A stretch of 64,000 bases of DNA from Patescibacteria group bacterium (GTDB taxonomy: Bacteria > Patescibacteriota > UBA1384 > XYA2-FULL-43-10 > 1-14-0-10-43-13), in the NCBI GenBank assembly GCA_041671645.1, contig JBAZBD010000001.1, forward strand, positions 85,561 through 149,560. The letters are read 5' to 3'. The notes beneath the pieces were generated by a model. It did not search any database. It was given only the letters and a program-made list of their open reading frames with translations, and had not been told where the DNA came from. This document shows, piece by piece, positions 770-30,700 of the stretch. The first letter of the stretch is position 1. Every line of letters begins with the position of its first letter. A program made the translations under genes and the position numbers.

Positions 770-794
770 GTATAGATACATTTGACTTTCGACT

Positions 795-1421
795 TTAGAC
801 TTTCGACTTTCGACTTAATTTGAGATGTCTCCAGACGTAGAGAACGATCAGAAGTATTACTATCACGAGCATCGCCATATCGAAATTGTGCAATTTGGTC
901 CTGATCGCTTCCCAATTCGCACCCATTTTGACACCGAGCCAGGCGAAAAGCGCCGTCCAGGGCAAAGCGCCCAGGAAGGTATAGATTGAGAAACGCTTAA
1001 AGTTCATCTTGGCGATTCCGGCAGGAAATGAGATATAAGTGCGAATCACTGGTAGGAGTCGGCCAAAGAAAACCGTGGCGTCGCCATATTTCGTGAACCA
1101 CTTGTCGGCTAAATTGAGATCGTGTTTGGAGATCAGGATATATTTGCCGTACTTCTCTATCAGCGGTCTTCCGCCACGATGGCCTATCCAGTAGGCCAGC
1201 CAAGAACCGACCAAATTGCCGAAGGCGCCGAGAAAGGTAATAGCCCAAAAATTCATCTTCCCTTCGGCGACCAGGAATCCGGAGAAAGGCATGATCACTT
1301 CTGATGGCATCGGGATACCGCAAGATTCGACCGTCATGAGCAGGAAGACACCAGAATATCCCATGACATCAATAATATTGATAACTGCTTGGGCCAACGC
1401 ATCGATAATGTTTGTAATCAT
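795..1421 (-). CDS. dedA: DedA/TVP38 family membrane protein
   Basis: VFLLMTVESCGIPMPSEVIMPFSGFLV and GRLLPVIRTYISFPAG are typical DedA motifs in a multi-TM protein. The C-terminus KLSRKSKV is encoded by the GACTTTC tandem repeat. Confidence 0.75.
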   Translation of the reverse strand: MITNIIDALAQAVINIIDVMGYSGVFLLMTVESCGIPMPSEVIMPFSGFLVAEGKMNFWAITFLGAFGNLVGSWLAYWIGHRGGRPLIEKYGKYILISKHDLNLADKWFTKYGDATVFFGRLLPVIRTYISFPAGIAKMNFKRFSIYTFLGALPWTALFAWLGVKMGANWEAIRTKLHNFDMAMLVIVILLIVLYVWRHLKLSRKSKV

Positions 1422-1528
1422 AAGTAGTGTTTCGTATTACGTATTAAGTATTAGGGGGAAATGAAAATTCACTCTTCTAATTCTACTCGATTTGGTTCAT
1501 TTTTTGAAGATGATAACTTACTTACCGT

Positions 1529-2740
1529 TTAGGTTAGTTCCCAGTTTGAATCCACATCAATCTCATCCCAATTCGAAATTTTGCCCTGTTTGATATGATG
1601 ATAAGCCGCCAACCCGATCATAGCCGCATTATCCCCAGTCATGTCTCGAGGCGGAGTCAAAAATTGAATAGTTTTATCTTTCGACTTTATACTTTCAACT
1701 TTCAACTGGATTTGGCTTGCCAGATACTGATTGGCCGAAACTCCTCCAGCGAAAACAACGGTCTTGGGCTGGAACTCCTTGACCGCTCTAGCGGTTTTCG
1801 TCGCCAGTACCTCGGCCACTGCCTCCTCGAAGGCGTACGCAATTTCCTGCTTGATTTCATCTGGAATTTCGGTTGGAGAATTCAAATTCAGTTCTAGGAC
1901 GATATCTTTTGTCTTCTGCAAAACCGAGGTCTTGAGTCCAGAAAAAGAGAAATTATAAGTTCCATCATTCATTACCGGACGCGGGAACACAATAGAGTTT
2001 GGCGTTTGGAGTTTAAAGTTTGGAGTTTCTTCTCCTGACTCCCGGCTCCCGGCTCCCAACCTTCTAAACTCGCAGGCGAGTTTAGAAATCGCTGGTCCCC
2101 CCGGGTAGCCCAGCCCCAGAAGCTTGGCGACCTTGTCATAAGCTTCGCCAACGGCGTCATCGAGTGTCTGACCAAGCGTCTCGTAAATCCCATGATCTTT
2201 CATTAATGTAAGGGACGTATGCCCACCAGAAACAGTCAGGGCAAGAATCGGGAATTGATCATCTGCACTTGATAATTCTCGGCTGAAGGCCGAGTAAATG
2301 TGTCCTTCGATATGATTGATTGGAATTATTGGCAACCCTCTGGCGTAGGCCATAGTTTTCGCTGCATTGAAGCCTACGAGCAGAGAACCGATCAAGCCTG
2401 GCCCAGCGGTGACAGCAATATGAGTAATCCCAGAAAGCTCTTCTATCGCTTCCTGATAATCGGCAGGGCCAACTTCTCGGCCCAATAATAGCGCTTGCGA
2501 GATGACTGGTATAATTGCTTCCATATGAGCGCGACTAGCCACCTCTGGGACGACCCCTCCGGTTTGGGCATGAAGATCAATTTGGGAGGAAATAATATTC
2601 GACAAAATGACAGGTCTAAGGCCTGTCATCCCGGACTTGATCCGGGATCCATCTAATTGCTCTTCAATTACTGCCGCCGCCGTCTCATCACAACTAGTTT
2701 CAATAGCCAGTATGCGAATTTTAGTATTTTTATTATTCAT
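1529..2740 (-). CDS. tsaD: tRNA N6-adenosine threonylcarbamoyltransferase TsaD (Kae1/YgjD family), with low-complexity inserts
   Basis: N-terminus ILAIETSCDETAAAV, plus HIEGHIYSA and GGVSANQYL motifs. It is about 60 aa longer than usual because of repeat-encoded inserts. Confidence 0.9.
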   Translation of the reverse strand: MNNKNTKIRILAIETSCDETAAAVIEEQLDGSRIKSGMTGLRPVILSNIISSQIDLHAQTGGVVPEVASRAHMEAIIPVISQALLLGREVGPADYQEAIEELSGITHIAVTAGPGLIGSLLVGFNAAKTMAYARGLPIIPINHIEGHIYSAFSRELSSADDQFPILALTVSGGHTSLTLMKDHGIYETLGQTLDDAVGEAYDKVAKLLGLGYPGGPAISKLACEFRRLGAGSRESGEETPNFKLQTPNSIVFPRPVMNDGTYNFSFSGLKTSVLQKTKDIVLELNLNSPTEIPDEIKQEIAYAFEEAVAEVLATKTARAVKEFQPKTVVFAGGVSANQYLASQIQLKVESIKSKDKTIQFLTPPRDMTGDNAAMIGLAAYHHIKQGKISNWDEIDVDSNWELT

Positions 2741-2898: not shown

Positions 2899-3885
2899 AT
2901 GTTTCCACCTACCCGCTCTACCTGTTATAATTGTGACATGAACAATATCTTCCAATCCAAAGAGTGGGAGCAGTTTAAACTTGCTACCGGTTACCAGAAG
3001 AGCTACTGGGTTGGTGATATTTTGGTCCTGCAGAAAAATCTGCCCCTAGGCTATTCAATGCTGTACGCGCCGATGGCGAATAGCGAATCTGGAATCTGGA
3101 ATCTAGAATCTGGAATAAAAGAATTTTCGAAACAGATAAGAGAAATAGCGAGGCAAAATAATAGCATTTTCTTTCGCTTGGAGTTTAATGTCCCTGTGGC
3201 TGGACCAAATTCAAAATTCAAAATTCTAGATTCCCGCTTTGGTTTTGCCAAAGCGTTCGAGGAAATGCAGCCAGAGCACACTCTCTTGCTTGATCTCTCC
3301 AAAACAGAAGAGGAATTGCTCTCCGAGATGAAGCAAAAGGGACGCTATAATATCAAAGTGGCAAGCAAAAACGAGGTTAAAATTCATTTTGGGACTAGCC
3401 CTAATGACATCGATAGCTTTTACAATCTTTACGAACAAACAGCCAAACGACACGGCATCACCCATCGAGCCAAAAAATATTTCATCCAGCTAGTTGAAAT
3501 CCTCTCGCAAAAAGGTTACTGTCGTGTTTATACGGCCAAGAAAACGATTGGGGGCAAGGAAACGGATCTGGCCGCTATGATTATGGTTTATTCTGGAGAG
3601 ACCGCGATCTACATGTTTGGCGCCTCAAACGATGACTTCAAGAACACGATGGCGCCGTACCTGATGCAATGGACCGCAATCAGGGATGCGAAAGAAGAGA
3701 AATACAAGAAATATGATTTCTTCGGCATCGCACCAGATGATAATCCAAAGCATCCATGGGCCGGCGTGACCAGGTTCAAACAACAGTTCGGCGGACAAGC
3801 AGCCCAAATTGCCGGTAGCTATGACTTGATCATACAGCCTACGGCCTATCAATTATTTAAAATTGCAGAGAAAATCAGACGATGA
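2899..3885 (+). CDS. FemAB-family peptidoglycan interpeptide-bridge aminoacyltransferase
   Basis: GRYNIKVASKN, AAMIMVYSGETAIYMFGAS and YLMQWTAIRDAKEEKYKKYDFFGI match the FemABX family. Confidence 0.7.
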   Translation: MFPPTRSTCYNCDMNNIFQSKEWEQFKLATGYQKSYWVGDILVLQKNLPLGYSMLYAPMANSESGIWNLESGIKEFSKQIREIARQNNSIFFRLEFNVPVAGPNSKFKILDSRFGFAKAFEEMQPEHTLLLDLSKTEEELLSEMKQKGRYNIKVASKNEVKIHFGTSPNDIDSFYNLYEQTAKRHGITHRAKKYFIQLVEILSQKGYCRVYTAKKTIGGKETDLAAMIMVYSGETAIYMFGASNDDFKNTMAPYLMQWTAIRDAKEEKYKKYDFFGIAPDDNPKHPWAGVTRFKQQFGGQAAQIAGSYDLIIQPTAYQLFKIAEKIRR

Positions 3886-3948
3886 TTAATAGAATGATCA
3901 AGGGTCAAGTATCAATGATCAAGTAAGTTATAAAATAATTTAAGAAAA

Positions 3949-5296: not shown

Positions 5297-5482
5297 ATGC
5301 CAGATGAAGAAGAGATAAAAGTTGAAGTGAAACAAATTGTCGATAATAAAACAGGAGTTTCGATCAATTCTGGCCCCCACCTGATCAAAGAGATTCAAAA
5401 AGAAATTGCTGTCATCGAGGAGTCTACAACTCCAGCCAAACAAGCTTTGGCCGAAAACGAAGAGTTCTGGGAAGAAAAATAG
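5297..5482 (+). CDS. Small acidic hypothetical protein (61 aa)
   Basis: ATG at 5297 just after the murE stop. The longer ORF-track form overlaps murE. Confidence 0.3.
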   Translation: MPDEEEIKVEVKQIVDNKTGVSINSGPHLIKEIQKEIAVIEESTTPAKQALAENEEFWEEK

Positions 5483-5485
5483 GAA

Positions 5486-6445
5486 CTATTTTTTGCCATG
5501 AAACTTCTGGTGCACTTCTCGCAGGTGCTGGTCGGTCACATGAGTATAAATTTGGGTCGTGGTGATTGATGAGTGGCCAAGCATAGATTGGACACTTCGA
5601 ATATCGGCACCATTGATTAATAGATCGGTTGCAAAAGAATGACGCAGAGTATGAGGCGTGCATTTTTTGGTTATGCCGGCCAATCCAGCGTACTTCTTTA
5701 CAATTCGCTCTATCGAACGAACGGTCAATCTCTCTCCCTTGGGCGATAATAGTAAAGGGTCGAGTGTCGGAGTGTCGGAGTGTCGGAGTGTCGGAGCTTC
5801 TGGCCTCTCTGCCTCTCCGCCTCTGTGCCCTTTGTTTTTATCATACTGATCTATCCAATACACCGCTGAGTCAGAGAGGAAGACAACTCTGATTTTTTTA
5901 CCCTTGCCCAGGACCGATATTTCACCCCGATCGAAATTGATGTCAGAAGTATCGAGCGCCGCCAGCTCAGAGACGCGCATACCAGTCGAGAATAGAACTT
6001 CTAATATTGCTCTGTCACGAAGACCAGTCACTTTGGTCGTATCAGGCTTCTCTAATATTCCAGAGACTTCTTCGCCTCCCAGGAAGCTGATTTCGCGATC
6101 CCCAGTCTTGGCGACGGGCACTTTCTCTGGCGCTAATGTCTCGATCCCGCGCCAGGAAAGATAGCGCAAGAACGCCCGCAGGGCCAAAATGTGATAATTT
6201 TGAGTAATCAATTTTAGTTCTAATCCCTCTTGGTCGGTCAGACGATTGACATGCAGGCGATATTTGCGCACGATTTCCTGAGTAATATTTGCTGGAGTCA
6301 GCTCCGCCCCAGAATTATTTTCCGCAAGATAGTCCAAGAATCGGGAAATATATCGATCATAATTTTCAATTGTCAGAACAGCCCGACCCTTTTCGAGCTC
6401 ACAATGTTCTAGAAATTGTCTTTTGAGTTCTTGCAGCGAAGCCAT
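5486..6445 (-). CDS. xerD: Tyrosine recombinase XerC/XerD family
   Basis: HTLRHSFATDLLINGADIRSVQSMLGHSSITTTQIYTHV catalytic region with an N-terminal core-binding domain. The likely start is MASLQEL at 6445. It contains a tandem-repeat-encoded insert. Confidence 0.85.
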   Translation of the reverse strand: MASLQELKRQFLEHCELEKGRAVLTIENYDRYISRFLDYLAENNSGAELTPANITQEIVRKYRLHVNRLTDQEGLELKLITQNYHILALRAFLRYLSWRGIETLAPEKVPVAKTGDREISFLGGEEVSGILEKPDTTKVTGLRDRAILEVLFSTGMRVSELAALDTSDINFDRGEISVLGKGKKIRVVFLSDSAVYWIDQYDKNKGHRGGEAERPEAPTLRHSDTPTLDPLLLSPKGERLTVRSIERIVKKYAGLAGITKKCTPHTLRHSFATDLLINGADIRSVQSMLGHSSITTTQIYTHVTDQHLREVHQKFHGKK

Positions 6446-6483: not shown

Positions 6484-7095
6484 CTAATCCACGTCCCATT
6501 TGTGTTCGTTGTTGTGAACAAGCCAGTAAGCCACGATGCCGGAGGAGATGCCAAGGAAGGCACCGGCCAGGACGTCAGATGGATAGTGTAGCCCTGCCCC
6601 CACACGTCCGGCCCCAACCAGAATTGCCAGGAGAAACAATACCATCCCAAGTCTTTTGTGCCCATAGAGAAATATGCTGGTGGCGATGGCAAAAGCAACA
6701 TAAGTGTGAACTGAGGGAAATGAGACGCTATAGACCCGAAGCCCCTCAATAATTGGCGTCATTACTTCGCTGCTATGGCTGATGAATGGTCTCGGCCGGC
6801 GCCAAAAAAGCGCTATTGCAAGATCGACAAATCCGGCGATTGCCATAGCGGCAAATGTACAGTAAAACGCATTTACTTTGCCCCGCAGGATCAGATAGAT
6901 ATAGGAGAGAAAGAAAAATATGATGCCATATTTGGCACAGAAAAGATAAATCTCGTTTAGCCATGGCCGTCCGTGGATAGCACCATGGAAGAAGAGATAG
7001 GTCTGGTAGTCATAGAATCTGGCTGTATCAAATAAATGTTCCATGACATTATTATACAGGACTGGCTTTCGTCTACCAACTTTTGATAAAATCAC
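6484..7095 (-). CDS. PAP2-family phosphatase (undecaprenyl-diphosphatase/phosphatidic acid phosphatase type 2-like)
   Basis: PAP2 motifs: K...RP (FWRRPRP), PSVH (FPSVHT) and SR...H...D-like (GRVGAGLHYPSDVLAG). The true start may be internal (MEHLFD). Confidence 0.7.
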   Translation of the reverse strand: MILSKVGRRKPVLYNNVMEHLFDTARFYDYQTYLFFHGAIHGRPWLNEIYLFCAKYGIIFFFLSYIYLILRGKVNAFYCTFAAMAIAGFVDLAIALFWRRPRPFISHSSEVMTPIIEGLRVYSVSFPSVHTYVAFAIATSIFLYGHKRLGMVLFLLAILVGAGRVGAGLHYPSDVLAGAFLGISSGIVAYWLVHNNEHKWDVD

Positions 7096-9690: not shown

Positions 9691-12501
9691 ATGATGAATA
9701 TTCTCGAAAAATTGAACTTATCAAAACAGAGCAGAATAATAGCCTTCTGCATTTTTGGATTTTTCCTTGTCGTTCTAGCTTTCTTGGTCCACCCTACCTT
9801 AACACTGGCCGGTACTGGGACTACCAGTAATCCAGCCACTTCATTTAATCCTCCGACAAGTTTAGCCAAAATCTATGAAGTTCTGGGCACCAACAACGGC
9901 GGTGTAGGTCACGAGATCCGATCTCTTTGGATCACCATGATGGGTATCGTGAATTCGCTGATAGTCTTAGTTCTCCTTTTTGTCGCTTTTGCGGAAATAC
10001 TACGCTTGAATGTCAGTACTTACGGAATCAAGAAGATATTGCCTACCCTAGTCCTGGCCGTACTAGCCGCCAACTTTAGCTACATTCTCTGTCGTTTCAT
10101 AGTCGATGTTGCCAACGTAATGCTGACTCTCTTTTTGAGTGATACCAATACCAAATGTATTACAGAAGGCATCAAAGTCTCAAAGTTCTTTCATGCCGAC
10201 ATCGAATCAATCATCAAAGATTTGAATGCGAACAAGGCAGGAGGTACTTCCGGTGGCCTTTTGACGGCATTGGCCTTGGTAATTTTTTCGATTGTCGCGG
10301 CGGTAATCACCTTAGTCCTGGCTTTTCTCTTTACTATCAGGAATTACATTATATATCTACTTGTGATTGTAGCTCCGATTGGCTTCATGGCCATGGCTCT
10401 GCCCCAAACCAAAACTTACTTCGGCCAATGGTGGAGCATGATGGTGAAATGGACTTTCATGCCTACTGTATCGATTGCCATCATCTGGATGGGTGGGCAA
10501 TTGCTCAAACTATCAGGCATAGGAGACTCCCCGCTCATGGGTATGGTTCTCTCTGTTGCCTTCTTGGTCCTTGCGATCCAGGTCCCCTTCAAGCTCGGCG
10601 GCCCAATCATGCAAAAATGGGGTGACATGGGCAAGAAAGCCTGGGGATCAACAGGTGGAGCTGCCGCCAATAAATGGGGTAGCGGCATCAAGGACTACTG
10701 GACTAATCAGGGGAAAAGCGTGGCCATGCGCGGCTGGAACAACTGGCGCATGACTGGATTAAATATGGTCCGCAAAGGCAACGGTTTCCAACGTGCCTTG
10801 GGAAACAGCTTCCTCTTCGGCTCGGGCGGAGACAAGGCTAAAGCCAATGTCAAATTTGAAGAAGATTTTGCAAAGGGTCTGACTGAGGGTATCCAGGCTC
10901 GTCACTACTACAAAGAAGACAGCACAGGCAAAGCAAGCAAAGCAGGCAAAAACCTCCAAATGCGCCGAGAATATCGGGCGAACCGTGCAGGCGAGGAGAA
11001 AGAGTATGAGGCCTATGCCAAAGAAGATATTATGAAGGTAGGGGCGACCGATCCAGAAGACGAGATGTACACCACCCTCAAGGCATGGCGCGCTTCTTCT
11101 GGACATGCCAGACAGAGAATGGCTATAGCCGAACAGCATATGAACGATTTAGTTGGGCAAGGTACCTTCGCCTCGATCCAGGGATATTTGATGAAAAAAG
11201 AAGACCAGAGTGAGGAAGAGATCAGAGTAGACGCGATTAAGAACAATCCCACTATTACAGACGCTGAGCTTAACAAGATTGTTGAGGAGACCGTAAAGGC
11301 AAGAAAAGAAAGAGACCAGGCAGAATACAAGAAGGTACTGGGAATGAACCAAGATCAATTCAAGGAATGGAGCGAATTCCAGATATTTGTAAATACCGAG
11401 AAAGAAAGTACTAATCGATTGAAAGAAAAAGCCGAGAAAGACCAGCTCGTCAAGCCGACAATGGATCAGCTTGCTATCCATGAACAAGCCGAGCTTTCTC
11501 AAGAAACCAAGCTTACAACACAGAAATTCAAAGAACTCTCTGACGAATTGAAAAAATTCGCCAACGGTATACAGACGAGTGGCAGAAAATTAAGTGAAAT
11601 GACCCAAGAGGAAAGAAACCACTTGCAGTCCAGCGCTTTCAGCGATGACGAAAGAAAGAAGTTTTCTGCCTATCTTAACAACCAGGGTCGCGCCACCGTC
11701 CGCCTTCGAGAGATGGGCGTATTGAATGAGAACGAGGAGTTCCGAGGCAGCGGTGACGCTCACGACTCCGCAATTGCTAAGGCCGTTGAGACGAGAGAAG
11801 CAGAGTTTATCGAGAAATTTATCAAGGGCGAGATGAAAAACGGTAAGAGAGCCGGAAAGGTAAGAATCGACGAGACTACGGGCAGGATTTCTCATATTCC
11901 AGCTCACTTGAGAAACCTGGTCGAACAAGATGCAGACGGGAACATCAAGCTAAGGCGTATGGATAGGACCACCTATACCAGAGGATTGGCTGTTGCTAAC
12001 GATAAAACCAAGGGAAGAGTTGCGGACTATTCCGCTATGACTGTCGACACCCTAATAAATCTGCTTACTGCAGGGGACAAAAAAGACAGCATCACCGCCG
12101 AAGACATCCAGGCCTTTAGAGCTGGACATGCCACCTCAGATACCAATAAGCGTAGCCGTATGATGGCCATGATAGCTTCACTTGCCGCAAAACTCGACAA
12201 GGCAAACGAAGCCAATCCAGCCGCTGAATTCATTATCAGTGGGCTTAGCCGTGATGAGACTACTGGGACCGACGAGACTCAGGAATTATTATCGGAACTT
12301 GAAAAATCTGCGGCGACTGGAGCCGCTTGGTCGACAGGCAAAGGTATGGAGGAGGCGTTAAAAGCAGCGCGGGATGCGTCTGCCGGTGACATAACGGAGT
12401 TTCGTAGAACTTTGACTACTGTTTACGCGACAATCCCCCAAAATCAAAGAGGTACCGTCAACTCTATTATTAGAAAATTTGTCAGAACTGGATCGTATTA
12501 A
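9691..12501 (+). CDS. VirB6/TrbL-like polytopic membrane protein with roughly 600-aa charged coiled-coil C-terminal extension
   Basis: Five to six TM segments across the N-terminal 330 aa with VirB6-like architecture. It is followed by a K/E-rich helical tail and sits in an operon with VirB3/VirB4 homologues. Confidence 0.55.
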   Translation: MMNILEKLNLSKQSRIIAFCIFGFFLVVLAFLVHPTLTLAGTGTTSNPATSFNPPTSLAKIYEVLGTNNGGVGHEIRSLWITMMGIVNSLIVLVLLFVAFAEILRLNVSTYGIKKILPTLVLAVLAANFSYILCRFIVDVANVMLTLFLSDTNTKCITEGIKVSKFFHADIESIIKDLNANKAGGTSGGLLTALALVIFSIVAAVITLVLAFLFTIRNYIIYLLVIVAPIGFMAMALPQTKTYFGQWWSMMVKWTFMPTVSIAIIWMGGQLLKLSGIGDSPLMGMVLSVAFLVLAIQVPFKLGGPIMQKWGDMGKKAWGSTGGAAANKWGSGIKDYWTNQGKSVAMRGWNNWRMTGLNMVRKGNGFQRALGNSFLFGSGGDKAKANVKFEEDFAKGLTEGIQARHYYKEDSTGKASKAGKNLQMRREYRANRAGEEKEYEAYAKEDIMKVGATDPEDEMYTTLKAWRASSGHARQRMAIAEQHMNDLVGQGTFASIQGYLMKKEDQSEEEIRVDAIKNNPTITDAELNKIVEETVKARKERDQAEYKKVLGMNQDQFKEWSEFQIFVNTEKESTNRLKEKAEKDQLVKPTMDQLAIHEQAELSQETKLTTQKFKELSDELKKFANGIQTSGRKLSEMTQEERNHLQSSAFSDDERKKFSAYLNNQGRATVRLREMGVLNENEEFRGSGDAHDSAIAKAVETREAEFIEKFIKGEMKNGKRAGKVRIDETTGRISHIPAHLRNLVEQDADGNIKLRRMDRTTYTRGLAVANDKTKGRVADYSAMTVDTLINLLTAGDKKDSITAEDIQAFRAGHATSDTNKRSRMMAMIASLAAKLDKANEANPAAEFIISGLSRDETTGTDETQELLSELEKSAATGAAWSTGKGMEEALKAARDASAGDITEFRRTLTTVYATIPQNQRGTVNSIIRKFVRTGSY

Positions 12502-13824: not shown

Positions 13825-14811
13825 ATGGCATTTTCAACTCAACAACAAATTGAGATTGCGGGTATCAAGGACGGTATTATCATCATGAAAGATGGAACGT
13901 ACCGTGTCATTTTGGAGGTGACTGCTACCAACTTTGCGCTCAAAAGCGAGATGGAGCAAAACTCTCTAATCATGCAATATCAGAGCTTCCTAAATTCCCT
14001 ACATTTTACGATCGAGATCACCATACGCTCGAAAAGATTGGATTTAGCTCCTTATCTGACCAAGATGAAGGCACTGGGCGACAAACAGCCGAGTGAACTG
14101 ATCCGAGAGCTATCCGCTGATTACGTCGACTTTATCGGCAAGCTCGTCACCATCGCCAACATTATGAAGAAAAGCTTCTTTGTCACCATCGCTTACTCTC
14201 CTATTTCGGTCAAACAGGTCGGGCTTTTCAACATGCTATTCGGGCAAAAAACACAAAAATTTGATCATTTGAAAATCTCCGATGTTGATTTCAAGAACGC
14301 AACTGAGAAATTGCTTGAAAACGCCGGTATAGTCGCTTCTGGCCTAGGCTCGATGGGGCTCCACTGCTTTCAGCTTTCAACCGAACAGATCATTGAGCTC
14401 TTTTATCAAATTTACAATCCAGCTGAATCAACCAAGGAGCGATTGACCGACGCTGAGATGCTAGCTTCTCAGGTCGTCTCCACCAAGAAAGCTCCGGCGG
14501 ATGGCAAGGTGCCGGAGATCGATGGTATCACGCCGATGCTGATTGACAACACTCATATTGTGACGGCCCAGATGCAGCAGGAGGCGGAGCAGAGACGACA
14601 GGCCACTGAGATGGAAAATATGAATGCTCCTGCTGGAACGCAAGTACCACAGACCGCAGCCACAGAACAGGCTGGGGCCAGCAAAGCACCAGAGCTCAAT
14701 GAACTAGACGTTGCCACGGTAAACACCTCGGCATCAACCCCAACTACCAATTCTCCATTAGATAATTTGAGTAAAGACGATGACGGACCAGAACCCAAAC
14801 CCACAACCTAA
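13825..14811 (+). CDS. VirB4/TraE-family ATPase, N-terminal portion (first fragment of a split gene)
   Basis: IKDGIIIMKDGTYRVILEVTATNFALKSEMEQNSLIMQYQSFLNSLHFTIEI matches the N-terminal domain of Gram-positive VirB4 (PrgJ/TcpF type). It ends in a Q/A/T/P-rich low-complexity tail. Confidence 0.55.
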   Translation: MAFSTQQQIEIAGIKDGIIIMKDGTYRVILEVTATNFALKSEMEQNSLIMQYQSFLNSLHFTIEITIRSKRLDLAPYLTKMKALGDKQPSELIRELSADYVDFIGKLVTIANIMKKSFFVTIAYSPISVKQVGLFNMLFGQKTQKFDHLKISDVDFKNATEKLLENAGIVASGLGSMGLHCFQLSTEQIIELFYQIYNPAESTKERLTDAEMLASQVVSTKKAPADGKVPEIDGITPMLIDNTHIVTAQMQQEAEQRRQATEMENMNAPAGTQVPQTAATEQAGASKAPELNELDVATVNTSASTPTTNSPLDNLSKDDDGPEPKPTT

Positions 14812-16714
14812 TCCTGTCCAGCCGGACGCTCAAGCCCCAGCCCCAGTTCCACAGGCTCCTCCGGCCGATGCTAGAGCGATTGCAAACCAGAACCTGAAGT
14901 CCAGAGAGAAAAGCTCGATGACTCCAGACGAATTTTGGAACAAAAAGGCAGAAGCGTCCAAAATCAAGAGTGGGGCGACCTCAGTTCGAGATATTGTCGC
15001 ACCTGCCTCTTTCGCTGTTTCGTCCAATTTTATCCAAATCGACAATTATTTCGTCAAAACTCTCTTTGTCTTCACCTACCCCCGGTATATCGAGACGAAT
15101 TGGCTCTCGCCAATTATCAACTACGATATTTCGATGGATATCGCCATGTATATCCACCCGATGGAGACCAGAGACGTCATGACCGAGCTCAAGACTCAAG
15201 TTGGTAAGCTCGAGTCCACCCTTTCAATCGAGCGGGAAAAGGGCCAGCCCAGAGACCCAGAAGTCGAGACCGCGCTCGGTGACGTTGAGGCGCTTCGAGA
15301 TGTTCTCCAGCGTGGCGAGGTCAGATTATTTCAATTTGGGCTTTACTTCACTATCTACGCCGGCTCAGCCGAAGAACTTCGCACCGTCATGGATCAGCTC
15401 GAATCAACCTTGGGCGGACTCCTGATTTATACCAAAGAGACACTTTTCCAAATGGAGCAGGGCTTCACTGCCACTTTGCCTCTGATGCAGGACAAGATCA
15501 ACGTCCTTCGCAATTTGGACACCGCCTCTCTCTCCTCTACTTTCCCCTTCGTCTCGAGCGAATTGACCCAAGACGATGGAATTCTGTACGGAATCAATCG
15601 CCACAACAATTCCCTAATTATTTTCGATCGATTTTCTCTTGAAAACGCCAACTCTCTAGTCCTGGCCAAATCCGGCTCGGGTAAATCGTACTTGGTCAAA
15701 TTGGAGGCCTTGCGCTACTTGATGCTTGGCACCGACGTAATCGTGATCGACCCAGAAAACGAGTACAAAACTCTTTGCGATTCCGTCGGCGGTAGTTACT
15801 TGGATATTTCGTTAAACTCCGACAAACGAATTAATCCGTTCGACCTCCCAATCAACCCCTACGAAACAGGCGAAGACGTCCTCCGCTCTAATATCGCTTC
15901 CCTCCATGGCCTGATCAATATCATGGTCGGTGGCCTCACCCCAGAAGAAGACTCCACCGTAGACAAGGCTCTTTATGAGACTTACGCCATCAAGGATATT
16001 ACGACCGATCCAGAAAGCCAGACCAATCAGCCTCCTCTGCTTCAGGACTTCTTCAATATCCTCTCCAACATGCAGGGCACTGAATCGCTTCGGGCCAGAC
16101 TGGTCAAATACACCGAGGGCACCTACGCCAATCTTTACAACCAGCCGACCAATTTTGAGCTCAAAGAAGGTTTCGTTTGCTTCTCTGTCCGCGACTTGGA
16201 AGATCAGCTCCGCCCAATCGCTATCTATACTGTCCTTGATTATATCTGGACCAAAGTCAGAATGAACCGAAAACAGCGCATCATGATCGTGGATGAAGCC
16301 TGGTGGATGATGCAATATGAGGATTCTGCCAAGTTCCTTCACGGCCTGGCCAAGAGAGCAAGAAAATATAACCTTGGGCTTACAATCATCAGTCAGGACG
16401 TCGAGGATTTCTTGGGTAGCCGTTATGGCAAAGCCGTCTTGGCCAACTCCTCAATGCAAGTCCTGATGAAACAATCGACCGCTTCGATCAATTTGATCGC
16501 TGATGTTTTCAATTTGACTGAGGGCGAGAAATATTTGCTTCTCGAGTCTGATGTCGGAGAAGGTCTCTTCTTCGCGGGCTTGAATCACGTAGCTTTCAAA
16601 GCGATTGCTTCCTACACCGAAAATGAAATTATTACTGTCGAGCCAGAAGAGCTGGCAAAACAGGGGCCAGAAGATGCTGTAGCGGCAGCAGACCCTAACA
16701 CACCAACCCAATGA
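14780..16714 (+). CDS. virB4: VirB4/TraE-family T4SS ATPase, middle and C-terminal ATPase portion
   Basis: Walker A AKSGSGKSYLV and Walker B IMIVDEAWWMM. FVKTLFVFTYPRYIETNWLSPIINYDISMDI matches the VirB4 middle region. It starts with a P/Q-rich low-complexity stretch in a different frame from the upstream fragment. Confidence 0.85.
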   Translation: MTDQNPNPQPNPVQPDAQAPAPVPQAPPADARAIANQNLKSREKSSMTPDEFWNKKAEASKIKSGATSVRDIVAPASFAVSSNFIQIDNYFVKTLFVFTYPRYIETNWLSPIINYDISMDIAMYIHPMETRDVMTELKTQVGKLESTLSIEREKGQPRDPEVETALGDVEALRDVLQRGEVRLFQFGLYFTIYAGSAEELRTVMDQLESTLGGLLIYTKETLFQMEQGFTATLPLMQDKINVLRNLDTASLSSTFPFVSSELTQDDGILYGINRHNNSLIIFDRFSLENANSLVLAKSGSGKSYLVKLEALRYLMLGTDVIVIDPENEYKTLCDSVGGSYLDISLNSDKRINPFDLPINPYETGEDVLRSNIASLHGLINIMVGGLTPEEDSTVDKALYETYAIKDITTDPESQTNQPPLLQDFFNILSNMQGTESLRARLVKYTEGTYANLYNQPTNFELKEGFVCFSVRDLEDQLRPIAIYTVLDYIWTKVRMNRKQRIMIVDEAWWMMQYEDSAKFLHGLAKRARKYNLGLTIISQDVEDFLGSRYGKAVLANSSMQVLMKQSTASINLIADVFNLTEGEKYLLLESDVGEGLFFAGLNHVAFKAIASYTENEIITVEPEELAKQGPEDAVAAADPNTPTQ

Positions 16715-21790: not shown

Positions 21791-24700
21791 TTGAGGGATG
21801 TGAAGAAATTTTTGCAAAAATTTGTGTTCACGCTGGTTGCGCTGATTTTGGTGTTGAACCCATATATCGAGCTCATCCCGACAGATTACTTCTCCAGCAA
21901 GGCCAAAGCGGCGATCAACGATATCCCTGATCCAGAGATCGCGTCAACCGATGAGAGCGATCATGATTATGAGGAGGAAGTAGATAGCGATTACACCCCA
22001 GAATACTCTCCGAATTTCATCCCCGACCCAGTCAAAGATGCCTTCTCCCTCGTGGTGACTGATACCACTGAGACCTTTACTGATCTTACCAGCACGAGCA
22101 GTCTGCTTGAAGATATTGGTGATGCCAAAATCATCCTGACCCAGAGTGATTTTGACGCGATCAAGGCCCTTCGTTGCATGAAGAATCTACTCCCGCCATT
22201 CGCCGAGAACATGTCAAAACTCTATGAGTTTACGATTCCCGAGGGTATCATTAATTCTAACGAACAATACAAAAACTTCCCAGCCAAAGAGGAAATTGAC
22301 GATGCAGTCTCTAGTGAGGGATCTCAAGCGACGCCAAGATTCGGCACACCCGAAGAATACCTCTCCTATCTCAAATACGGAGACTCTGGCGACCCGCTCC
22401 TCACCACAAACCAGAACAAGGAAAAATTTGTTAACTATGTTGATTCAGCCAAAGCATATTACGGCGACGATCGCTTAAGGGCAGACTGGCTTGCGCAAAT
22501 CGACAACCTTGCAGAGAACAAAACTCTCGATACCGATATAAATACTCTAGCTTGCGTCACTCGGATTACTGACGCAGAACAGCTGATGGCTCTGATTCGA
22601 GAAAGCAAAACTGATGAGACCAAGCGACAGTACTTGCTCGACAGAATCAATGAGAGTCTAGACGGACTCAAGATTGACATCCGCGCAGTCAAGGCCCTGA
22701 TTTATTTGGTTACGCCTAAGAACAAGGGAGGCGCTGGACACTGGAGAATCCGCGTCAAGAAATTCCTCCAAACTGGCCGCAAATCAGGTGAGTCTGATGC
22801 GTTGCTGACTGGAGCCGCCAAAACAGTGAACTGTGATCCGGCCAAATCCGCCGCTGAATGCGGCATGGCTCAGTACCAACCGGGCGAGGCGACGATAGAA
22901 GAGAAAGATGGTAGCGCCTACACTGCCTATCTAGAGTCTATGAACGACGGTGAGCAAAATGATTCAATGCACCAGCAGGGTCAGGCTATTGATATTTCTG
23001 AGATTGACGACATAAGATGCACGATACGGAAAGAGGTTAAGCAGTGGGGAAATGTTAAGGGCCAGAACACTCCTCAACCAACAAGACCAATTAAGTTGGC
23101 CTGGCAGACTACAGAAGGGTTCAACAAATCAGAGGGTGCCAATGACTTTGATATGATGTCTCTTATCAAATCGATGGCGACCTCCGAGGTGGTCGACTTC
23201 CTGGGCTCGATCAACGAGACTGATATGTCTGACTATGAGGGCGACCTGACCAGAGCCAGTTTTGGAGATCTAGTCAACGTAGTGGGCAAGTCCCTAATGA
23301 CTGAAATTCTCGCTTCGCCTGATCATAATTTGAAGGGCTATAGCACCGACAGCACTCTTAGAAACCTGGGTGGTATCTATATCGCTGACTATCTCGGGAT
23401 TAATCGAAAATTATTTACAGACAAACATATCAACACTCCGGGAGATCTCTTCTATGAAATCGGCCGCGGCGCGATCGAGACTCGGATGAAATTGCCTCTC
23501 AACTCACTCGACACGACCAATCCTGCCGTGCCCCTCTTCTCGACCTTGGCCCAGACAGGAACTAGGAAATTGGAGTATGAATTGGGGCTAGCCAACGGAG
23601 ATCTGGCGCGCCTAGACCCAAACTCGGTTGCCAGCATCTATATTGGCGCCCGTGTGATCGAAGGAACGCTTAATTTCAAGAAATTCGTTTGGCCAAGCCA
23701 GGACAAGCCATTTGCTGAGTTTGCCAGCACAGCAGAGGGTCTGAATTGGTTTGATCTGCTTCGGCTCAGCCCAGACACAATCGACATGATGCTTCACCTG
23801 AAGTCTGGTGTGACTGAAGCCTTGGTCAAGGGCAAGACCTTGACTCCGGCTCAGTATGACAAAATGATGAAGTTGCCCGAGGGCACGACGACAGAGTCAG
23901 TCAAGATGAACTCGGACCGATACGCTAGTATCGTTGGGCAAGTTAGATTGGATGAGACAACTTTTGGCTTTCAATACTTCGCCGCCAACGATGCCGCCTT
24001 CTCCTTGCCAACTGGGCTCTGGGCTGAGGTAATCAAATTTAGCCCAGATACTTTGCAACAGAGCCTCGCTGAAGTCGGAATTTATACGCTCTCTCGACTA
24101 TTCGGCGAAGATGATGCTTCTCCTTTGCCAAAGCTAGAAGTGGGAGAGCAGGTTGTCAGTATCCAGACCCATGAGTACGGCAAGGATGTAACTTTCCAGG
24201 CAAATGATGGTAACTTTGGTCGCTGGGTATTCCGAAGTTGGCTTCGAGACAACCTAACCAAATCAACCGAAGAGGCTTGTCAGGCGCCGGCCCGTCCGAT
24301 TGAGGTTGATGTTTCCTTTGATCAAGCTGGCGCTCAGCAGCCAAATCCAAACAGTCTGCTAGATGTTCAAGCAACTTTTGGAACCAATGTATTCAAACCG
24401 GTCAGTCTAGCTCTAGACTACCAAGTCACCTATAATCCAGCCGCCAATGGCATACCACAGCCTTCGAAAACGCTGACCAAAGACGTCTCTGAGATTAGAC
24501 CAATTTCCGAAGAAAAGGCAACGAAATATGGCTTTGTAAATCGAGACTTACAAAGAATCTTTGGCTGTGCATCAGCCAATGGGCGTGATGTCTACCAGCG
24601 GATAGGCTCTGAGCTCCTCTACACCGCCCTGATCAACCAGGCGCTGAGCGAGACTGACCGCGCCAAGATTGACATTATGGACACCGATCCTACAATTCAT

Positions 24701-27700
24701 GTTGCCAACGAAGAGATCAACTTCTACATCCAACGCATCTTCTATATTAAGAAATTGCTTGGACAGATCGACACCCAATACGGCTCAATCGTATCTGAGG
24801 GCAAAGACGACATTAAATCTTTTGTAGATCTTTCGAAACTATCTTATGACCAGCTCAAACAGGTATATGGAGACCTGACCAATCTCCAACTGTTCTCCAT
24901 CAGCAAAATAGCCGCTACCGCCTCACAGACTATGACCGATATCGACACGCTAAAACAGGTGGCCTCCGATTGGAAAGAGTACATGCGGACACGAAGGGCA
25001 GACTTGGTCGGAGATATAGCTGCCGTCAATCAGATTGTTTATCTCGTCAACGAGCTTTGGACCACTATTGCCGAGCTCGATCGTGGCAAGGCTATTAATG
25101 GTGTTGATCGTATTAAATTTCAGCAGATTGATTCTACTCCGCTACAGGAAGTCGTAAACCAGGACAGAAGACAGCAAGCACAAGAGAGATCAGACTCGGC
25201 CAAGAAAAAGGGCCTCTCTGCTTGGCAGGTTGCACAGATGATGTTCGACTGGATTGCCGGTACGATCACTTCCTCCGAGCTCTTTTATCGCCTGGGCGCC
25301 AACTCGATCGAAGCTAACATCGGCCTTCCGCCCAATAGCCTAGTCTACCTAGTCCGCAATTATGACCAAAATGGCATATCTGGCCTCGACGCCTTTTATC
25401 AATCGGTTGGCCAGGCCAGGATTGAGGAAAATTTTGGCATGCCCGCCTTCTATTTCCAGGGCAACTTTGATGCCCAGGCCAAGCCCAACTTCCAATCTGA
25501 CCTGAAGGCAGTCTACAACATGATTACGACGGATTCTGTGCTTAAGCACGATTATCCCGATCTGGCCGCACTATCCGAAGCAGACTTCCTGAAGTATATG
25601 GATAGCCTGCTCACGGCGCCGATGCTCGATTATGCCGCCGATCCCTGGATACAGCTTATCAGGACCCCCGGTAGTCCATATTCGATCAGTAGTGAGCCCA
25701 AGACCCCAGGTGATGATCTCAATGCCTACAAGGCCTTCTACAAGAAAATCGCCGATAGTCAAAAAGCTTATACCAAGAGCACGGCTCATTGGCAGGCAAT
25801 TGTTGACAATGTCGACAAACGTTGGAAAGCCAAGCGCGCCAGTGATGTCAAGGGATTGGGCAGTAGCAAGTACAGCGAATCAACAGTCCAAGACATCGTA
25901 GCAAATATCAAACAGCGCTGCTTCACTGGTGTAAACAAAGCTCAAGCGGATGGTACAGTGAAATGTCTCAATATGACTCGGTCCCCCGAGGATGATCTCC
26001 TTTTCCGTATGGGTCTCCCGCGTGGAAACTTTAACGCTATGACCGCAGAGAATTCAGTCAACAACACGTCCCTCTGGACTCGACTAGCAGGCACTACTCA
26101 GTCAATCGAGCAGGGATTCACAATCGATCAAAACGCGATCAAAGCCCTCTTTACCGGAGAAGATACTCGCTATATTAATCTTTCCCGAAAAGAGAAGCAG
26201 GTGGTCGAGGGTTCTGCTCTCAAAATCAATACCAACGTACTAAGTTTCTACGCTCAGATGCTTAATGGTGAGGTTCTGCCCAACGACACAGATCAGTATA
26301 ATTTGGACACTTGGACTCAGTACTACGTCAGCAACCCGTATGCACCGAAACAGCAAGCCAGTGAGACTTGCCCAGTTCTTTATTTGCCAAAAGGTGACGC
26401 AAGCGGCACCTTTATGGTCAATGAGACTACCCTTGAAAACAATTCATACTGCTATTATGACGCCAAGGGAAGACACTGCTTCAAGAGTTGGGATGAAGCC
26501 CAGCGCTATGCCATTGCCCACGAAGCCGACTCGATAAGACATCTGAAAGTCGTGATAGACGGCAAAGAGCAGGAAATTAGCAACAATATTCTGGGATATC
26601 TTGCCAATCAACTTGTTCTGGCCAACAATGCCGCTTTACCTGACCAAGCGACCACAGATGCCGCCGCAAATGCAAATGTCACCATCCATGGAACTATCGA
26701 ATTAAATCTGAGTGATGTCTACGCAGGACTGGTCAGATTTGTGAATGACAACTCGATGGTCGATATCTTTGGGGATAAGAACAAGAGTATAGCCATGATT
26801 TCGGCCATCGCTGGCTCGACGACTGTGCCGGCTAGTATACTAGAAAAGCTTTTTACTCGTGAACCGAGCGTAAATTCCGTCGCCACTTTCAAGAAGAAGG
26901 TTGGTGTCAAGGAAGCACAAAAAGTTGTCACTTACCAAATTTTTGGAGCTTTGCAACTTGGCCTCGCCGTTGGGCCGGACTACTTCGACGCAGGCGACCT
27001 CTATGATGTCTTGAACGGCGACTACACTGCGCTGACCAACATCGCGACCAATTATATTGATCTGAAGGCTGAGCTGAAGCCTGGCACAACACGTCTTCTC
27101 TACGAAGCTCGCAATCCAGAATCAATTACTTGCGCCCTCGCCCAAGCTGGTGGCTCAATGCTCGGTCGGATCTTTGGCCTCAACAATATTCCGCTCAATG
27201 GGATCCAAAACGTCTCATCATTTAAAGAAGCGGTCGGTCAAGCCAAGGTCGAGGAGACCCTCTCCCTGCCTCGAGGTACCTTCAGGGGCAACAATCTGTA
27301 TGAACTGCTCGACAATGTCGGACCGATCAACTTCATGATCGCCTTTAAGATACCGGTTGACCCATCAGTTGCGAATGGGATTTCTGACGATATCGACAAG
27401 ATACTCAACTCCAACACTAGCTACTCTCAGGGAGCCAATTTGGCCTATCGCTTGACTCGGGTAAGAGATGTTCTCTCGACTCGCAATATTCTTCAAAGTG
27501 ATATTGGCACAGCCATCGCCAATATCAACAGCGCTCTCAAAAATTATTTCATCAATGATCTGCTCAAACAATTTGAAAATGATCCGACCAAGATCCAAGT
27601 TGCCCTGTCGGCCCGTAATCAAAACAATAGAGATTGGTATTATGCGGTCCAGGATTTCTATCAGCAGACCAGTTCACTGGACAAAACTTTTGCGGTCAGC

Positions 27701-30700
27701 AACGGTAGCACTTATCAGCTTCTAACCAACTCGATCAAGCCAAAAACCTATATCAATCGAATTGGCGAGAATCTCATGGTCACTGCCGCCATTTCCAACG
27801 CCGCCACTCTGCTTGGGATTTCCGACGCGAAAGTTCAGGCAGCAGCCGGCGTCCTGGGTGCAATCAAGAACAATTTTGTCTGCGAGAAAAGCAAGATCAT
27901 CACCAGAGATAATTATCCATCAAACGGCGTTTCTGACGGACATTTTCTCTACGATGTGCAAGTAAACAATATCAAAAATGACTACTGGGAACAGTATCTC
28001 AGAACCGGCAAACATACTTATGACGATGTTGGCTTTCCCGTCTTGGTTTATGATGAGGTTGGCGCTGCAATCGGCTACTGTAGCGATGACACTTATGGCC
28101 AATTCGGCGAACTGTATACCAATCTTAATACCCTCTTCGGCTTCAATCTTGATGACAGGATGAATTTGCCGGAAGGCACGATCAGCAAAGTTCTATCTGA
28201 CCCCGACCACATCGTCGATAATATATTGAATATCGGACTCAGCAAACTTGACCAACAACTTGGACTTGACTATACCGTGGACGGTTCTTTCTCATTCAAT
28301 GGCTTCTGGAAAGCGACCTTTTACAAGGACGGCCAGAAGAAGGACGCAGAGAGAGAAAAAATCGACAGAAAGTGCTACAGCCAAAGTTATCCAGGGGGGA
28401 CAGACGTCGCCATCAAAACTCAGTATGACGCTGCCAACAACGATATTAAGCGATTGCTCGGAGAGTGGCCGGCCCGAGGAGCTTCACGGATCGAGGGCGA
28501 AAATTACCAGCAGTACTCGCAGAGAGTAACTTCTCAAGCCACTTTGGACGCCACTCACACTACTGAGATGCGGGACGCTTGGGTTAGCGATTGGGAAAAA
28601 TACAATCAGCAGGCTAACACTGCTAGCGGCAATATTACTATCCAAAACAATGCCTTTAATCAATGTAAGCTCGACAACAGGAAGCCAGTAAGTAACGCGG
28701 CGTTACGAGCAGATATTCTTGACTACGCCACCGGCCAACTTGTCACTTTGACTGGCAAACTACTGCGAGACGTTGTCGTTACGATTCCTGATTGCCAAAA
28801 CAATCGCGCCGCTTATCTTGACGGGGCAGGCAGCTATGACCCCGTTCTCTCCAACCAGCTTGATTATTTCGGCCAGCCTATTGGCTATGAAGAGTGCAAA
28901 GCCAAGGTCGGTGTTGTTGTTCCGAGAGAAGATTTGAAAGCACTTATCCAGGGCGACCTTCGCTATCTTTCCCCGATTGCCATGACAATCGCTTCAAACA
29001 TCGCCATGATACCGGTAGACATGTGGGGCACGGATAACTGCAATCCAGACGCCGATGGCCGATGTGAGAGTGCCGTTCCACCTCAATTCAAGCTCAGTTA
29101 CAACGACTACAAATATGCCATTTTTGGCAACGCTCAGTCCGACCAAGCGGCTCGGGACGTCGCCGCTTATAGTCACTTCAACTTAATTGAAAAAAACCCT
29201 GACGGCGTACGCATCAACTCAGGGCCGGAGTATCCTGTCTCTACTGATCCCTTCGACACGGGTCTTGGCATACTTTCAGATACCAGGGTGGCAAAAGTAG
29301 CGAATCAACCTGGCAGAGAGATTATCAACAACAAGACTGATATCTACACACAATACGGCTATACCCCAAGTAGTGCCGAGGCTGTCGATGCAATCAGCCA
29401 ACGAGCCGATTTGCAAAACAGCGTGGCCGACTTTGAAAACGCTTGCGGCATCAAGTATGGGCTTATCAGCAACAGCGCGGCGACTTGCCACAATGGGTCA
29501 CCAGAGTTTGCGGCCTATATTTCAGATAGAACTCAATTAACCGCACTAAGAGATAGGGAGACTGCGATTCTAGGCGAATCAAAGAACCTCTACCGAAACA
29601 ACTTGATGTACAAGGCGATAGACATAGCCGCCTGGAAACTTGATGGCAACGCCTATCCTGGATTTGCTCGCGCAATCGCAATCGGCACTCCCAAAATGAA
29701 GGCAGAGGCCCTTGTCACTTATCTCAAGATTGGTGCTCAGAGAGGCCATCTCTTCGGCATGGATTTCAGAGCAGTCAAAGATATCGAGCAGTGGGCCGGG
29801 GCCGCTCAATTTCTCTACGAGGCTGGGCAAAATATTCTTCGCGATACGGATACGTTTGACCCCCTAAGCACTCTTGCCAAGAATCCTAGCGCTCGATATT
29901 TCATCCAAGATTTTATCGTCTCTCGCTCAAAGGCCTGGTTTGGCTTCGAGATCCAACCAGACATGGCTGAGGGTATTATAGTCGGCATTGGTACTATGGG
30001 CTCAGCCGACCATCCTTGGGGCAATTGGGGGATCAAGGATGTCGGCATCGACAAAGTTTTTGAGGACCCGAACAACACGGGCGTCACTATTAATGTTGGA
30101 GGAGACAAGACAGTCCAGATGAAGACTCTGGGCGGAGCAACACAAGAGTATCTGGTCGACCGTCTTTTCTCCTGGGCCGACACCAAACTTGGTCTCGAGG
30201 CAGGCACTTCCTTCAAGCTCGCCAAGGGCATATATGACGCTTTCACTGCTTACGGCAAAGTATCTGCCGCCATCAAGGCCGCCAAGCTGGCTGGTTGGGT
30301 TGTGCCAAACTTGCCTCATACTGCCGCTGGCCTGGAAGCGATAGCCGACACTCTTTTCGATAAAGCAGACGCGTTAGCTTTGGATATAACAGACGCAGAA
30401 CTTTCGGCAAGCCTAACAGGGGCTGACGCTAACCAAATCGTTTATGAGAATACCGGATTTGATGGCGTAGACGCAGGAGAAAAAGCTGCCGAGGATGCCA
30501 AAGCTGCCTCTAAGACTATAAATACCGAGGGAACCAAATTCCAAGCTGCCAAAGACCTTGTTGCGGCCATAATCATTGAAATCTTAATTGGTAAAGCGCT
30601 TGGCAAAATCGTGGCCGGTTGGGAACAGGATCTTGGTATGATCCCTGGCACTCTGATGCCACTGGTTTCTGGTATTGTCACTTTCGTGTTTATCTTCGTC

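Follow-up and report, generated by a model that had tools for sequence, protein, structure and literature searches.

Translated octamer arrays in a predicted disordered loop of a Patescibacteria XerD-type recombinase and a lineage-wide excess of 7-nt tandem repeats

The DNA analyzed here (the window) is a 64,000-nucleotide (nt) stretch of a Patescibacteria group bacterium (GenBank assembly GCA_041671645.1, contig JBAZBD010000001.1, positions 85,561 to 149,560), representing approximately 7% of an 868-kb genome, and its subject is a pair of adjacent tandem arrays of 8-nt units located within the gene for a XerC/D-type tyrosine recombinase (hereafter XerD). This octamer pair, translated in frame in a permissive loop of the protein, is probably the product of a lineage-wide tendency toward tandem duplication that is filtered by the reading frame. 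The evidence consists of direct observations, namely the anatomy of the arrays, a gain of sequence relative to close homologues, an excess of similar arrays across the genome and the lineage, the avoidance of stop codons, the disorder of the loop in a predicted structure and the integrity of the catalytic residues. The XerD repeat is genuine and not a chance pattern, and it is one of many in housekeeping genes and not special to XerD.

Anatomy of the XerD arrays

Tandem Repeats Finder (TRF) identified an exact array of period 8 at window positions 5762-5796 (GAGTGTCG x4 followed by GAG on the + strand; 4.4 copies, 100% matches) and a second, degenerate array of the same period at 5803-5829 (+ strand GCCTCTCT GCCTCTCC GCCTCTGT GCC; 3.4 copies, 84% matches), the two being separated by the six bases CTTCTG. 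A first-pass annotation, made from the letters and open reading frames (ORFs) of the window, had described an octamer repeated four times, as found here, followed by a heptamer repeated three times and ending at 5825; the latter is in fact the imperfect octamer array, and it continues to 5829. Both arrays lie opposite the sense strand of the ORF, as that annotation had it. On the sense strand the exact units form most of a 39-nt block, designated the B-array, and the degenerate units form the purine-rich A-array (Table 1). Translation across both arrays reads ...KGHRGGEAERPEAPTLRHSDTPTLDPLLLSPKGERL..., and the peptide originally given for the region, EAERPEAPTLRHSDTPTLDP, is encoded at 5756-5815, immediately before LLLSPKGERL. 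The arrays are in frame, with the reading frame kept and free of stop codons. GC content is 64.7% over 5762-5829 versus 46.3% for the XerD gene and for the window, so that the local enrichment remarked on earlier is real.

An independently assembled Logan contig (SRR18595301) was 100% identical to the window over 13,822 nt, including the XerD array. The Logan contig and the NCBI metagenome-assembled genome (MAG) probably derive from the same reads, and this agreement therefore excludes an artefact of the assembler and not one at the level of the reads.

The host gene is an intact chromosomal Xer recombinase

Pfam matches to PF02899 (Phage_int_SAM_1, residues 10-100) and PF00589 (Phage_integrase, residues 122-307, E=6.8e-44) show the two-domain architecture of an N-terminal SAM-like core-binding domain joined to a tyrosine-recombinase catalytic domain. 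The best matches among solved structures by sequence were E. coli XerD 5dcf and 1a0p (E=9e-41), and a Foldseek search with the predicted model placed XerA 5hxy and XerD 1a0p at the top and also matched XerH; the gene was thus correctly named at first pass. The protein is 100% identical to NCBI MFA6963177.1 (Patescibacteria group bacterium MAG, 867,751-bp contig), and the sole other member of its 90% cluster is a call with a longer start on the same contig. The catalytic residues R157, K181/K184, H265, R268, H291 and Y300 are invariant in an alignment of 28 homologues (alignment A1), their E. coli XerD counterparts being R148, K172, H244, R247, H270 and Y279.

The gene order PAP2 phosphatase-XerD-ORF of 55-61 aa-MurE-FemAB-TsaD recurs in relatives L122, L126 and L128. 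Because this synteny is kept, the host gene is an intact chromosomal Xer recombinase and not a prophage integrase, and the origin as a phage integrase that had been named as an alternative was excluded. Named relatives of the neighboring genes are Berkelbacteria.

The arrays encode a loop within the catalytic domain

The repeat-encoded residues had been expected between the core-binding and catalytic domains. An insertion in the domain linker was ruled out by the Pfam boundaries and by alignment to 1a0p, in which these residues fall between 'EEAVYWLETYLEH' and 'DVLFPS' (approximately residues 193-206 of 1a0p), following the Lys-bearing hairpin and the next helix and thus inside the catalytic domain. 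The loop is 24 residues long in the window protein versus 11 in E. coli XerD. In an AlphaFold2 model built on a 28-sequence alignment, residues 208-225 have a predicted local distance difference test (pLDDT) score below 50 and lie between helix 192-204 and the strands preceding helix 242-255. Helix 192-204 (DSAVYWIDQYDKN) corresponds to E. coli XerD helix alphaH, which together with alphaE forms the docking surface for FtsK-gamma, with E183/E184 important and W188 nearby; this surface faces away from the DNA and the active site (PMC5052618). By homology, the loop therefore starts just past the FtsK-gamma docking helix and on the far side of the protein from the DNA, a location at which extra residues would be tolerated. 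Since the loop begins at the end of the docking helix and opposite the DNA, FtsK-dependent activation, rather than DNA binding or catalysis, would be the activity most plausibly affected, if any is. Within an intact enzyme, the insert most likely amounts to a disordered loop that the protein tolerates; that it is tolerated and not adaptive we infer.

Stepwise growth of the XerD loop

Among 107 homologues, the segment from RVVFLS to TVRSIER varies from 33 to 75 residues around a sharp mode at 41, the length found in 41 proteins. The window segment, at 49 residues, is unique among the 107, of which 10 exceed 42 residues, and the sequence of the loop is unconserved in alignment A1. The region thus does exceed its homologues in length, as expected of the insertion first proposed; the site, in contrast, is not a fixed one and is instead a loop hypervariable across the clade, in which only the exact 39-nt array was gained.

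The closest relatives, P0002 (L122/L130) and a P0003-like sequence (L136), share approximately 77-83% identity with the window protein. In nucleotide alignment A3, the window differs from L130 and L136 by a single clean 39-nt block, CTCCGACACTCCGACACTCCGACACTCCGACACTCGACC, which is exactly the B-array (+ strand 5758-5796). The 12 codons upstream of this block, at the A-array, align with 12 codons of L130 that read GACAAGA GACAAGG GACAAGA GACAGAG, which is itself a purine-rich heptamer array. Because the nearest relative has an A-like array without a B-array, the A-array is the older of the two, and the pair was therefore built stepwise and not delivered as one unit. Other relatives carry other short repeats in the same loop, or none: an exact TCAAAGA x3.7 array with a TCTCCTCC...AGGAGAGA hairpin in L126, a GGTCGCC-AAA-GGCGACC hairpin in L127, and neither array nor hairpin in L124. 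A metagenome scan with XerD returned no contig of the same strain and nothing closer than 79% identity.

Two more hypervariable regions were noted in XerD homologues, one after the first two core-binding helices and one in the C-terminal tail (A1 columns 55-110 and 420-481), with up to approximately 60 low-complexity residues added; the first of these contains an ATAAATG x4.9 array in L128 XerD (10280-10313). Some inserts in XerD homologues read ...IPAKAEIQ... and ...EPRRKAGIQDSL..., which we take to resemble translations of a widespread palindromic repeat. Near-identical peptides were also seen in the L127 XerD loop (PRSFADAQDD, approximately 1400-1520, adjoining a small hairpin) and in an N-terminal insert of L128 TsaD (PRSFANAQDD, approximately 14990-15060), and these suggest a further palindromic element, dispersed within the lineage and inserted in frame.

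Period-7 and period-8 arrays in the window and the lineage

Array counts were compared with a second-order Markov model. The window contains 10 period-7 arrays against 0.43 expected and two period-8 arrays against 0.1 expected; by TRF, arrays of either period number approximately 16, of which 11 lie within the first 6 kb. In a lineage sample of 78 non-redundant Patescibacteria XerD loci (580 kb), 20 period-7 arrays were found against 1.0 expected and one period-8 array against 0, and the density in the window is approximately 3.6-fold above that of the sample. Many period-7 arrays were detected by TRF in L128, L126, L122 and L210.

Twelve of the approximately 16 window arrays lie inside ORFs or overlap the end of a gene, and they are read in all three frames; in-frame arrays also occur in TsaD, a 5'-3' exonuclease, FemAB and ribosomal protein S6. 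In both TsaD and S6, a perfect GTTGAAA array would introduce an in-frame TGA, and the variant units found in these genes are exactly the ones by which the TGA is lost. Given that the intergenic copy is perfect, these variants indicate that the arrays are translated and under purifying selection. Units recur between loci: AAAGTTG is found in three arrays (with a fourth one base off) and AAACTCC in two, giving four identical unit pairs among 14 arrays (P ~5e-5 versus heptamers drawn from the window).

The TsaD loop is hypervariable too: the segment ranges from 41 to 88 residues over 115 homologues, whole proteins being 348-526 aa, and the window insertion is clean, HMMER splitting the alignment at query residues 228/252 versus residues 192/195 of 8iey_A. 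The L128 TsaD loop has AAATCCG- and AACAATAT-type arrays, and in TsaD relatives at 62-70% identity the loops contain ...PNSKFQI... and ...NSKFKIQNS..., as AAATTCA-type units do when translated; the TsaD array lineage is therefore old. No TsaD relative closer than 70% identity was found for dating the composite. Positions orthologous to the FemAB arrays have different arrays or indels in L128 and L126, and the exonuclease composite corresponds to a 15-residue gap versus Pol I chain 6vde_A.

A scan for CTCCAAACTCCAAACTCC with one genome per species returned at least 120 loci. The matches listed include Nostoc, Chitinophagaceae and other Bacteroidota, Nitrospirota, Acidobacteria, Firmicutes MAGs and a Parcubacteria genome; upstream of many of these matches lies a different purine-rich heptamer array. 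At L163, (ATAGRAG)x4-loop-(TTCTRAC)x4 lies just upstream of XerD, so that periodic inverted arrays also arise from unrelated units. When 630 kb of sequence from relatives was searched for GGAG/CTCC composites with a regular expression, only tRNA T-arms were recovered, the pattern being too strict to inform. No relevant report of heptamer or tandem repeats in Patescibacteria or the Candidate Phyla Radiation (CPR) was found in the searchable literature, coverage of which was incomplete, so that novelty is provisional.

A composite repeat family and its hairpins

The exonuclease composite could be dated. In exonuclease relative P0122 (GCA_964526355.1), 95% identical over aligned residues, the composite is missing, and the DNA has a single GTCAGGA (...GGCAGTCAGGACATG...) exactly at the site of the window's GTCAGGA x4-aatgg-CTCCAAA x3.6. 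A 44-nt block (net +42 nt) distinguishes the two; apart from the unit itself no target sequence is duplicated, and terminal repeats are absent. The single GTCAGGA of P0122 indicates that the purine-rich array of the exonuclease is a local amplification of a pre-existing heptamer.

A third composite, intergenic, was noted in L210 (GCA_964526355.1) at 6785-6846, between the S20 and NTP-transferase genes, and an AAATCAA x4.6 array lies just upstream of it at 6704-6735. This composite reads GAGTCAG GAGTCTG GAGCCAG CAGTCGG GAG-caatctctcaa-CTCCAAAC. The TsaD, exonuclease and L210 composites align with 74% mean column identity over approximately 65 nt in the layout (GGAGYCR)n-loop-(CTCCAAA)n, and thus make up a dispersed family that has a core in common. 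The covariance model built from them (R1) scores its own three members at 63-90 bits by construction (TsaD, 83 bits). Membership of the XerD composite was rejected, as R1 gave no match at 5755-5835 even at E<=10.

Folding was compared with that of shuffled sequences. The exonuclease hairpin is strong (RNA z -4.4 sense and -5.4 antisense; single-stranded DNA z -2.9), and that of XerD is weak (RNA z -0.94 sense and -3.2 antisense; single-stranded DNA z -1.15 and -0.79), so that a DNA cruciform or hairpin at XerD, where the single-stranded DNA folds no better than shuffles, appears unlikely. The common orientation of the three composites relative to the coding strand had been considered as a sign of directed insertion and was dropped, since a palindromic layout is identical on both strands and the argument is meaningless.

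Proposed mechanism and competing explanations

Under the explanation that we favor, mutation in this lineage would be strongly biased toward tandem duplications with a unit of 7 nt, or occasionally 8 nt, which would arise and lengthen through replication slippage or template switching. At XerD, an older purine-rich A-array, matching the heptamer array of the nearest relative in position and length, would have been followed by a recent, still exact 39-nt gain of the B-array (CTCCGACA x4.4), and selection would keep those genic arrays that preserve the frame, lack a stop codon and fall in a structurally permissive flexible loop. Origin from a local seed is supported by the sister case of the exonuclease, with its one GTCAGGA in the relative that lacks the insert. 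Several points weigh against this account. No convincing local seed of the B-unit was present in L130 or L136; no polymorphism between strains, the direct signature of slippage, was observed in searches whose closest metagenome match had 79% identity, and slippage is thus something we infer; and the neutrality of the XerD insert is an assumption. The period of 8 at XerD is unusual on a period-7 background. The recurrence of AAAGTTG (x3 plus a near-variant) and AAACTCC (x2) at unrelated loci (P=5e-5) is not explained by slippage from random seeds, nor are the frequent partly complementary array pairs explained by simple slippage, and these two features would be compatible with a copy-choice or element-like mechanism, for which the in-frame Rickettsia palindromic elements (RPEs; PMC10969869) are the nearest precedent. 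Conceivably, though we regard this as rather doubtful, the paired, partly complementary arrays are more than by-products of simple slippage and mark the action of a specific mechanism that generates or copies them, for example template switching between loci primed by microhomology, or an enzyme acting on hairpins. If true, such a mechanism would favor particular units across Patescibacteria, Nostoc, Bacteroidota, Nitrospirota and Firmicutes, and would in CPR continually remodel surface loops of essential proteins, including that of XerD beside the FtsK-docking helix.

The XerD insert could alternatively be a copy of a small dispersed, possibly mobile, periodic-hairpin element, a CPR analogue of the RPEs. 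The dispersed TsaD/exonuclease/L210 family is real, heptamer units are common to loci far beyond chance, CTCCAAA arrays have an upstream partner array among the listed Nostoc, Bacteroidota, Nitrospirota and Firmicutes matches, and XerD has a like layout of GGAG-type array, spacer and CTCC-type array. This origin is nevertheless unlikely for XerD, which goes unmatched by the family covariance model and has a hairpin that departs from shuffles only as antisense RNA; its A-array predates its B-array, so that the pair was no single arrival, the exonuclease copy grew on an existing GTCAGGA without target-site duplication or terminal repeats, and unrelated arrays occupy the same loops of relatives. 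It is very unlikely that the nucleic acid itself is the signal, either as structured RNA or as Shine-Dalgarno (SD)-like GGAG and anti-SD-like CUCC motifs with a role in ribosome pausing or in the control of expression, with the peptide incidental. The exonuclease composite does fold far better than shuffles, and two intergenic arrays precede start codons by 12 and 26 nt, a kind of position also reported for the TAACTGA repeats of Beggiatoaceae (PMC4679880), but the mRNA-sense fold of XerD is no better than shuffles, sequence and structure are unconserved in orthologues, and the copies differ such that no Rfam-type conservation can be built.

A unit that is not a multiple of three makes any one-unit change a frameshift, and a coding heptanucleotide precedent is described for NeuO (PMC13001214), so that XerD could in principle be a phase-variation contingency locus switched off and on by the gain or loss of one 8-nt unit, as with E. 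coli K1 neuO. We consider this highly improbable because of the low copy number (only 4.4 copies, in mid-gene) and because similar arrays lie in the essential genes for TsaD, S6 and the exonuclease, where on/off switching is implausible; in addition, several arrays are degenerate, which suppresses slippage, and database searches, in which the closest metagenome match had 79% identity, returned no frameshifted variant. An assembly or sequencing artefact is barely credible. Short tandem repeats are prone to mis-assembly and both assemblies may rest on one read set, but two assemblers agree over 13.8 kb, the frame is kept without stops, and analogous arrays are found in the orthologous loops of many independent assemblies.

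Relation to known repeat systems

Cyanobacterial short tandemly repeated repetitive (STRR) heptamers consist of a few favored units at many loci and are overwhelmingly intergenic. TAACTGA direct repeats of marine Beggiatoaceae, cyanobacteria and Bacteroidetes are overwhelmingly intergenic and carry stop codons (MacGregor 2015, PMC4679880). As with both, favored heptamers occur here at many loci, some arrays lie just upstream of starts and a unit of the window, CTCCAAA, is also found in Nostoc, Bacteroidota and others. The arrays here differ in that most are coding and either free of stop codons or altered so as to lack them, and in having a Patescibacteria host; the XerD arrays, which are of period 8 and coding, fall outside the STRR/TAACTGA type.

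Heptanucleotide long simple sequence repeats (LSSRs) are cited as the most abundant long-unit class in prokaryotes, with polymerase slippage proposed, and genic units in that survey as mostly multiples of three (Mrazek, Guo & Shah 2007, via PMC4679880). To the extent that LSSRs are described in that source, the likeness lies in head-to-tail units of 5-11 nt longer than chance, a dominant period of 7 and the proposed slippage, and the XerD arrays are indeed head-to-tail 8-nt units longer than statistical expectation. Relative to the same description, the arrays here differ in their positions (12 of approximately 16 arrays of 7 or 8 nt coding or at a gene end, in all three frames), in the XerD period of 8 and in that many form partly complementary pairs.

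RPEs are cited as dispersed families of approximately 100-150 bp with conserved sequence and encoded peptides (Ogata 2000/2002, via PMC10969869). As summarized there, they resemble the present case in that short hairpin-forming repeats stand in frame in unrelated housekeeping genes at fold-compatible positions, and the XerD insert is in frame at such a surface site of an unrelated housekeeping protein (pLDDT <50; face by homology). The XerD insert differs from that summary in being approximately 70 nt long, made of two tandem arrays, unlike other copies, built stepwise and weakly palindromic; with no similarity to the R1 family and no single-unit arrival or target-site duplication, it is unlikely to be an RPE or an element like a miniature inverted-repeat transposable element. 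With the neuO contingency locus, as portrayed in PMC13001214, it shares a unit that is not a multiple of three within an ORF, and it differs from that portrayal in that the XerD arrays are of low copy number and in mid-gene, the genes hosting arrays are housekeeping or essential and the databases searched contained no variants. As a candidate phase-variable simple sequence repeat, XerD has the non-triplet unit; its tract of 4.4 copies lies in a housekeeping recombinase and not in a gene for a surface component, antigen or modification, and the searches returned no on/off alleles.

For XerD alone the repeat is of little consequence. More broadly, repeats of 7-8 nt, unit lengths usually deemed excluded from coding DNA, would be a visible and ongoing source of loop-length variation in essential genes of a CPR lineage, where some of the events can be dated and purifying selection clearly acts against stop codons. 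They would provide a concrete mutational explanation for many insertions in CPR housekeeping proteins and call for caution from annotators and structure predictors over such loops. Pairs of genomes with and without a given array offer a tractable system for asking why period 7 and particular units are favored, a question that dates from the first report of the heptamer excess.

Features of the window

Table 1. Coordinates of the XerD gene, its arrays and other arrays of the window (position 1 is the first letter of the window)
Feature	Position	Strand	Description
XerC/D-type tyrosine recombinase gene	5486-6445	-	319 aa; in-frame ATG upstream at 6499 gives the 337-aa JGI call
B-array	5758-5796	-	39 nt = 13 codons, lineage-specific gain; sense CTCCGACA x4.4 then CTCGACC; encodes PTLRHSDTPTLD
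Spacer of the two arrays	5797-5802	-	sense CAGAAG, inside P-E-A codons
A-array	5803-5829	-	older degenerate purine-rich octamers; sense CACAGAGG CGGAGAGG CAGAGAGG; encodes HRGGEAER
Residues 208-225, predicted disordered surface loop from the arrays	5771-5824	-	AlphaFold2 pLDDT <50
TsaD composite	1995-2057	-	(GGGAGCC)x2.7, tcaggagaag, (AAACTCC)x4.9; 23-aa insertion
5'-3' exonuclease composite	62572-62630	+	(GTCAGGA)x4.1, aatgg, (CTCCAAA)x3.6; recent net gain of 42 nt
S6 C-terminal tail array	56170-56201	-	GTTGAAA-type; TRF
GTTGAAA-family array, TsaD C-terminal region	1678-1707		TRF
GTTGAAA-family array, intergenic	34045-34070		perfect; TRF
GTTGAAA-family array, VTT gene end	784-816		TRF
FemAB arrays	3085-3226	+	GAATCTG x4.6 at 3085-3116; AAATTCA x2.9 at 3207-3226
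Intergenic GATCAAG x4	3896-3923	+	26 nt upstream of MurE start
Intergenic CGTATTA x3	1433-1453		12 nt upstream of VTT gene start

The intergenic arrays at 1433-1453 and 3896-3923 occupy positions like those of 5' untranslated regions, where the TAACTGA repeats of Beggiatoaceae have also been reported. Several large genes form a block at 7728-31282, among them those for a TrbL_3-like protein of 936 aa (9691-12501) and a TraC-like protein of 328 aa (13825-14811) and a 3163-aa ORF (21791-31282), and the block resembles an island of the type IV secretion or conjugation-like kind; a strict array finder returned no period-7 or period-8 arrays within it, in contrast to the first 6 kb. In L122, the closest XerD relative, a gene at 1078-1539 for a 23S rRNA intervening-sequence protein (PF05635) adjoins PAP2; this gene is absent at the corresponding place in the window.

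An acidic ORF of 61 aa, MPDEEEIKVEVKQ...EEFWEEK, lies between XerD and MurE at 5297-5482 (+), is called as a gene in the Logan contig and has no Pfam match on record. ORFs of 55-61 aa stand at the same position in L122, L125, L126 and L128, and the product looks like a conserved small protein.

S6 (55945-56640, - strand) is 231 aa long, with its S6 domain at residues 3-90 and the remainder a long acidic, lysine-rich C-terminal extension that carries the array. In the VTT-domain membrane protein gene (795-1421, - strand), the last residues (…KLSRKSKV) and the TAA stop are derived from a GAAAGTC array, the stop being supplied by the variant unit TAAAGTC.

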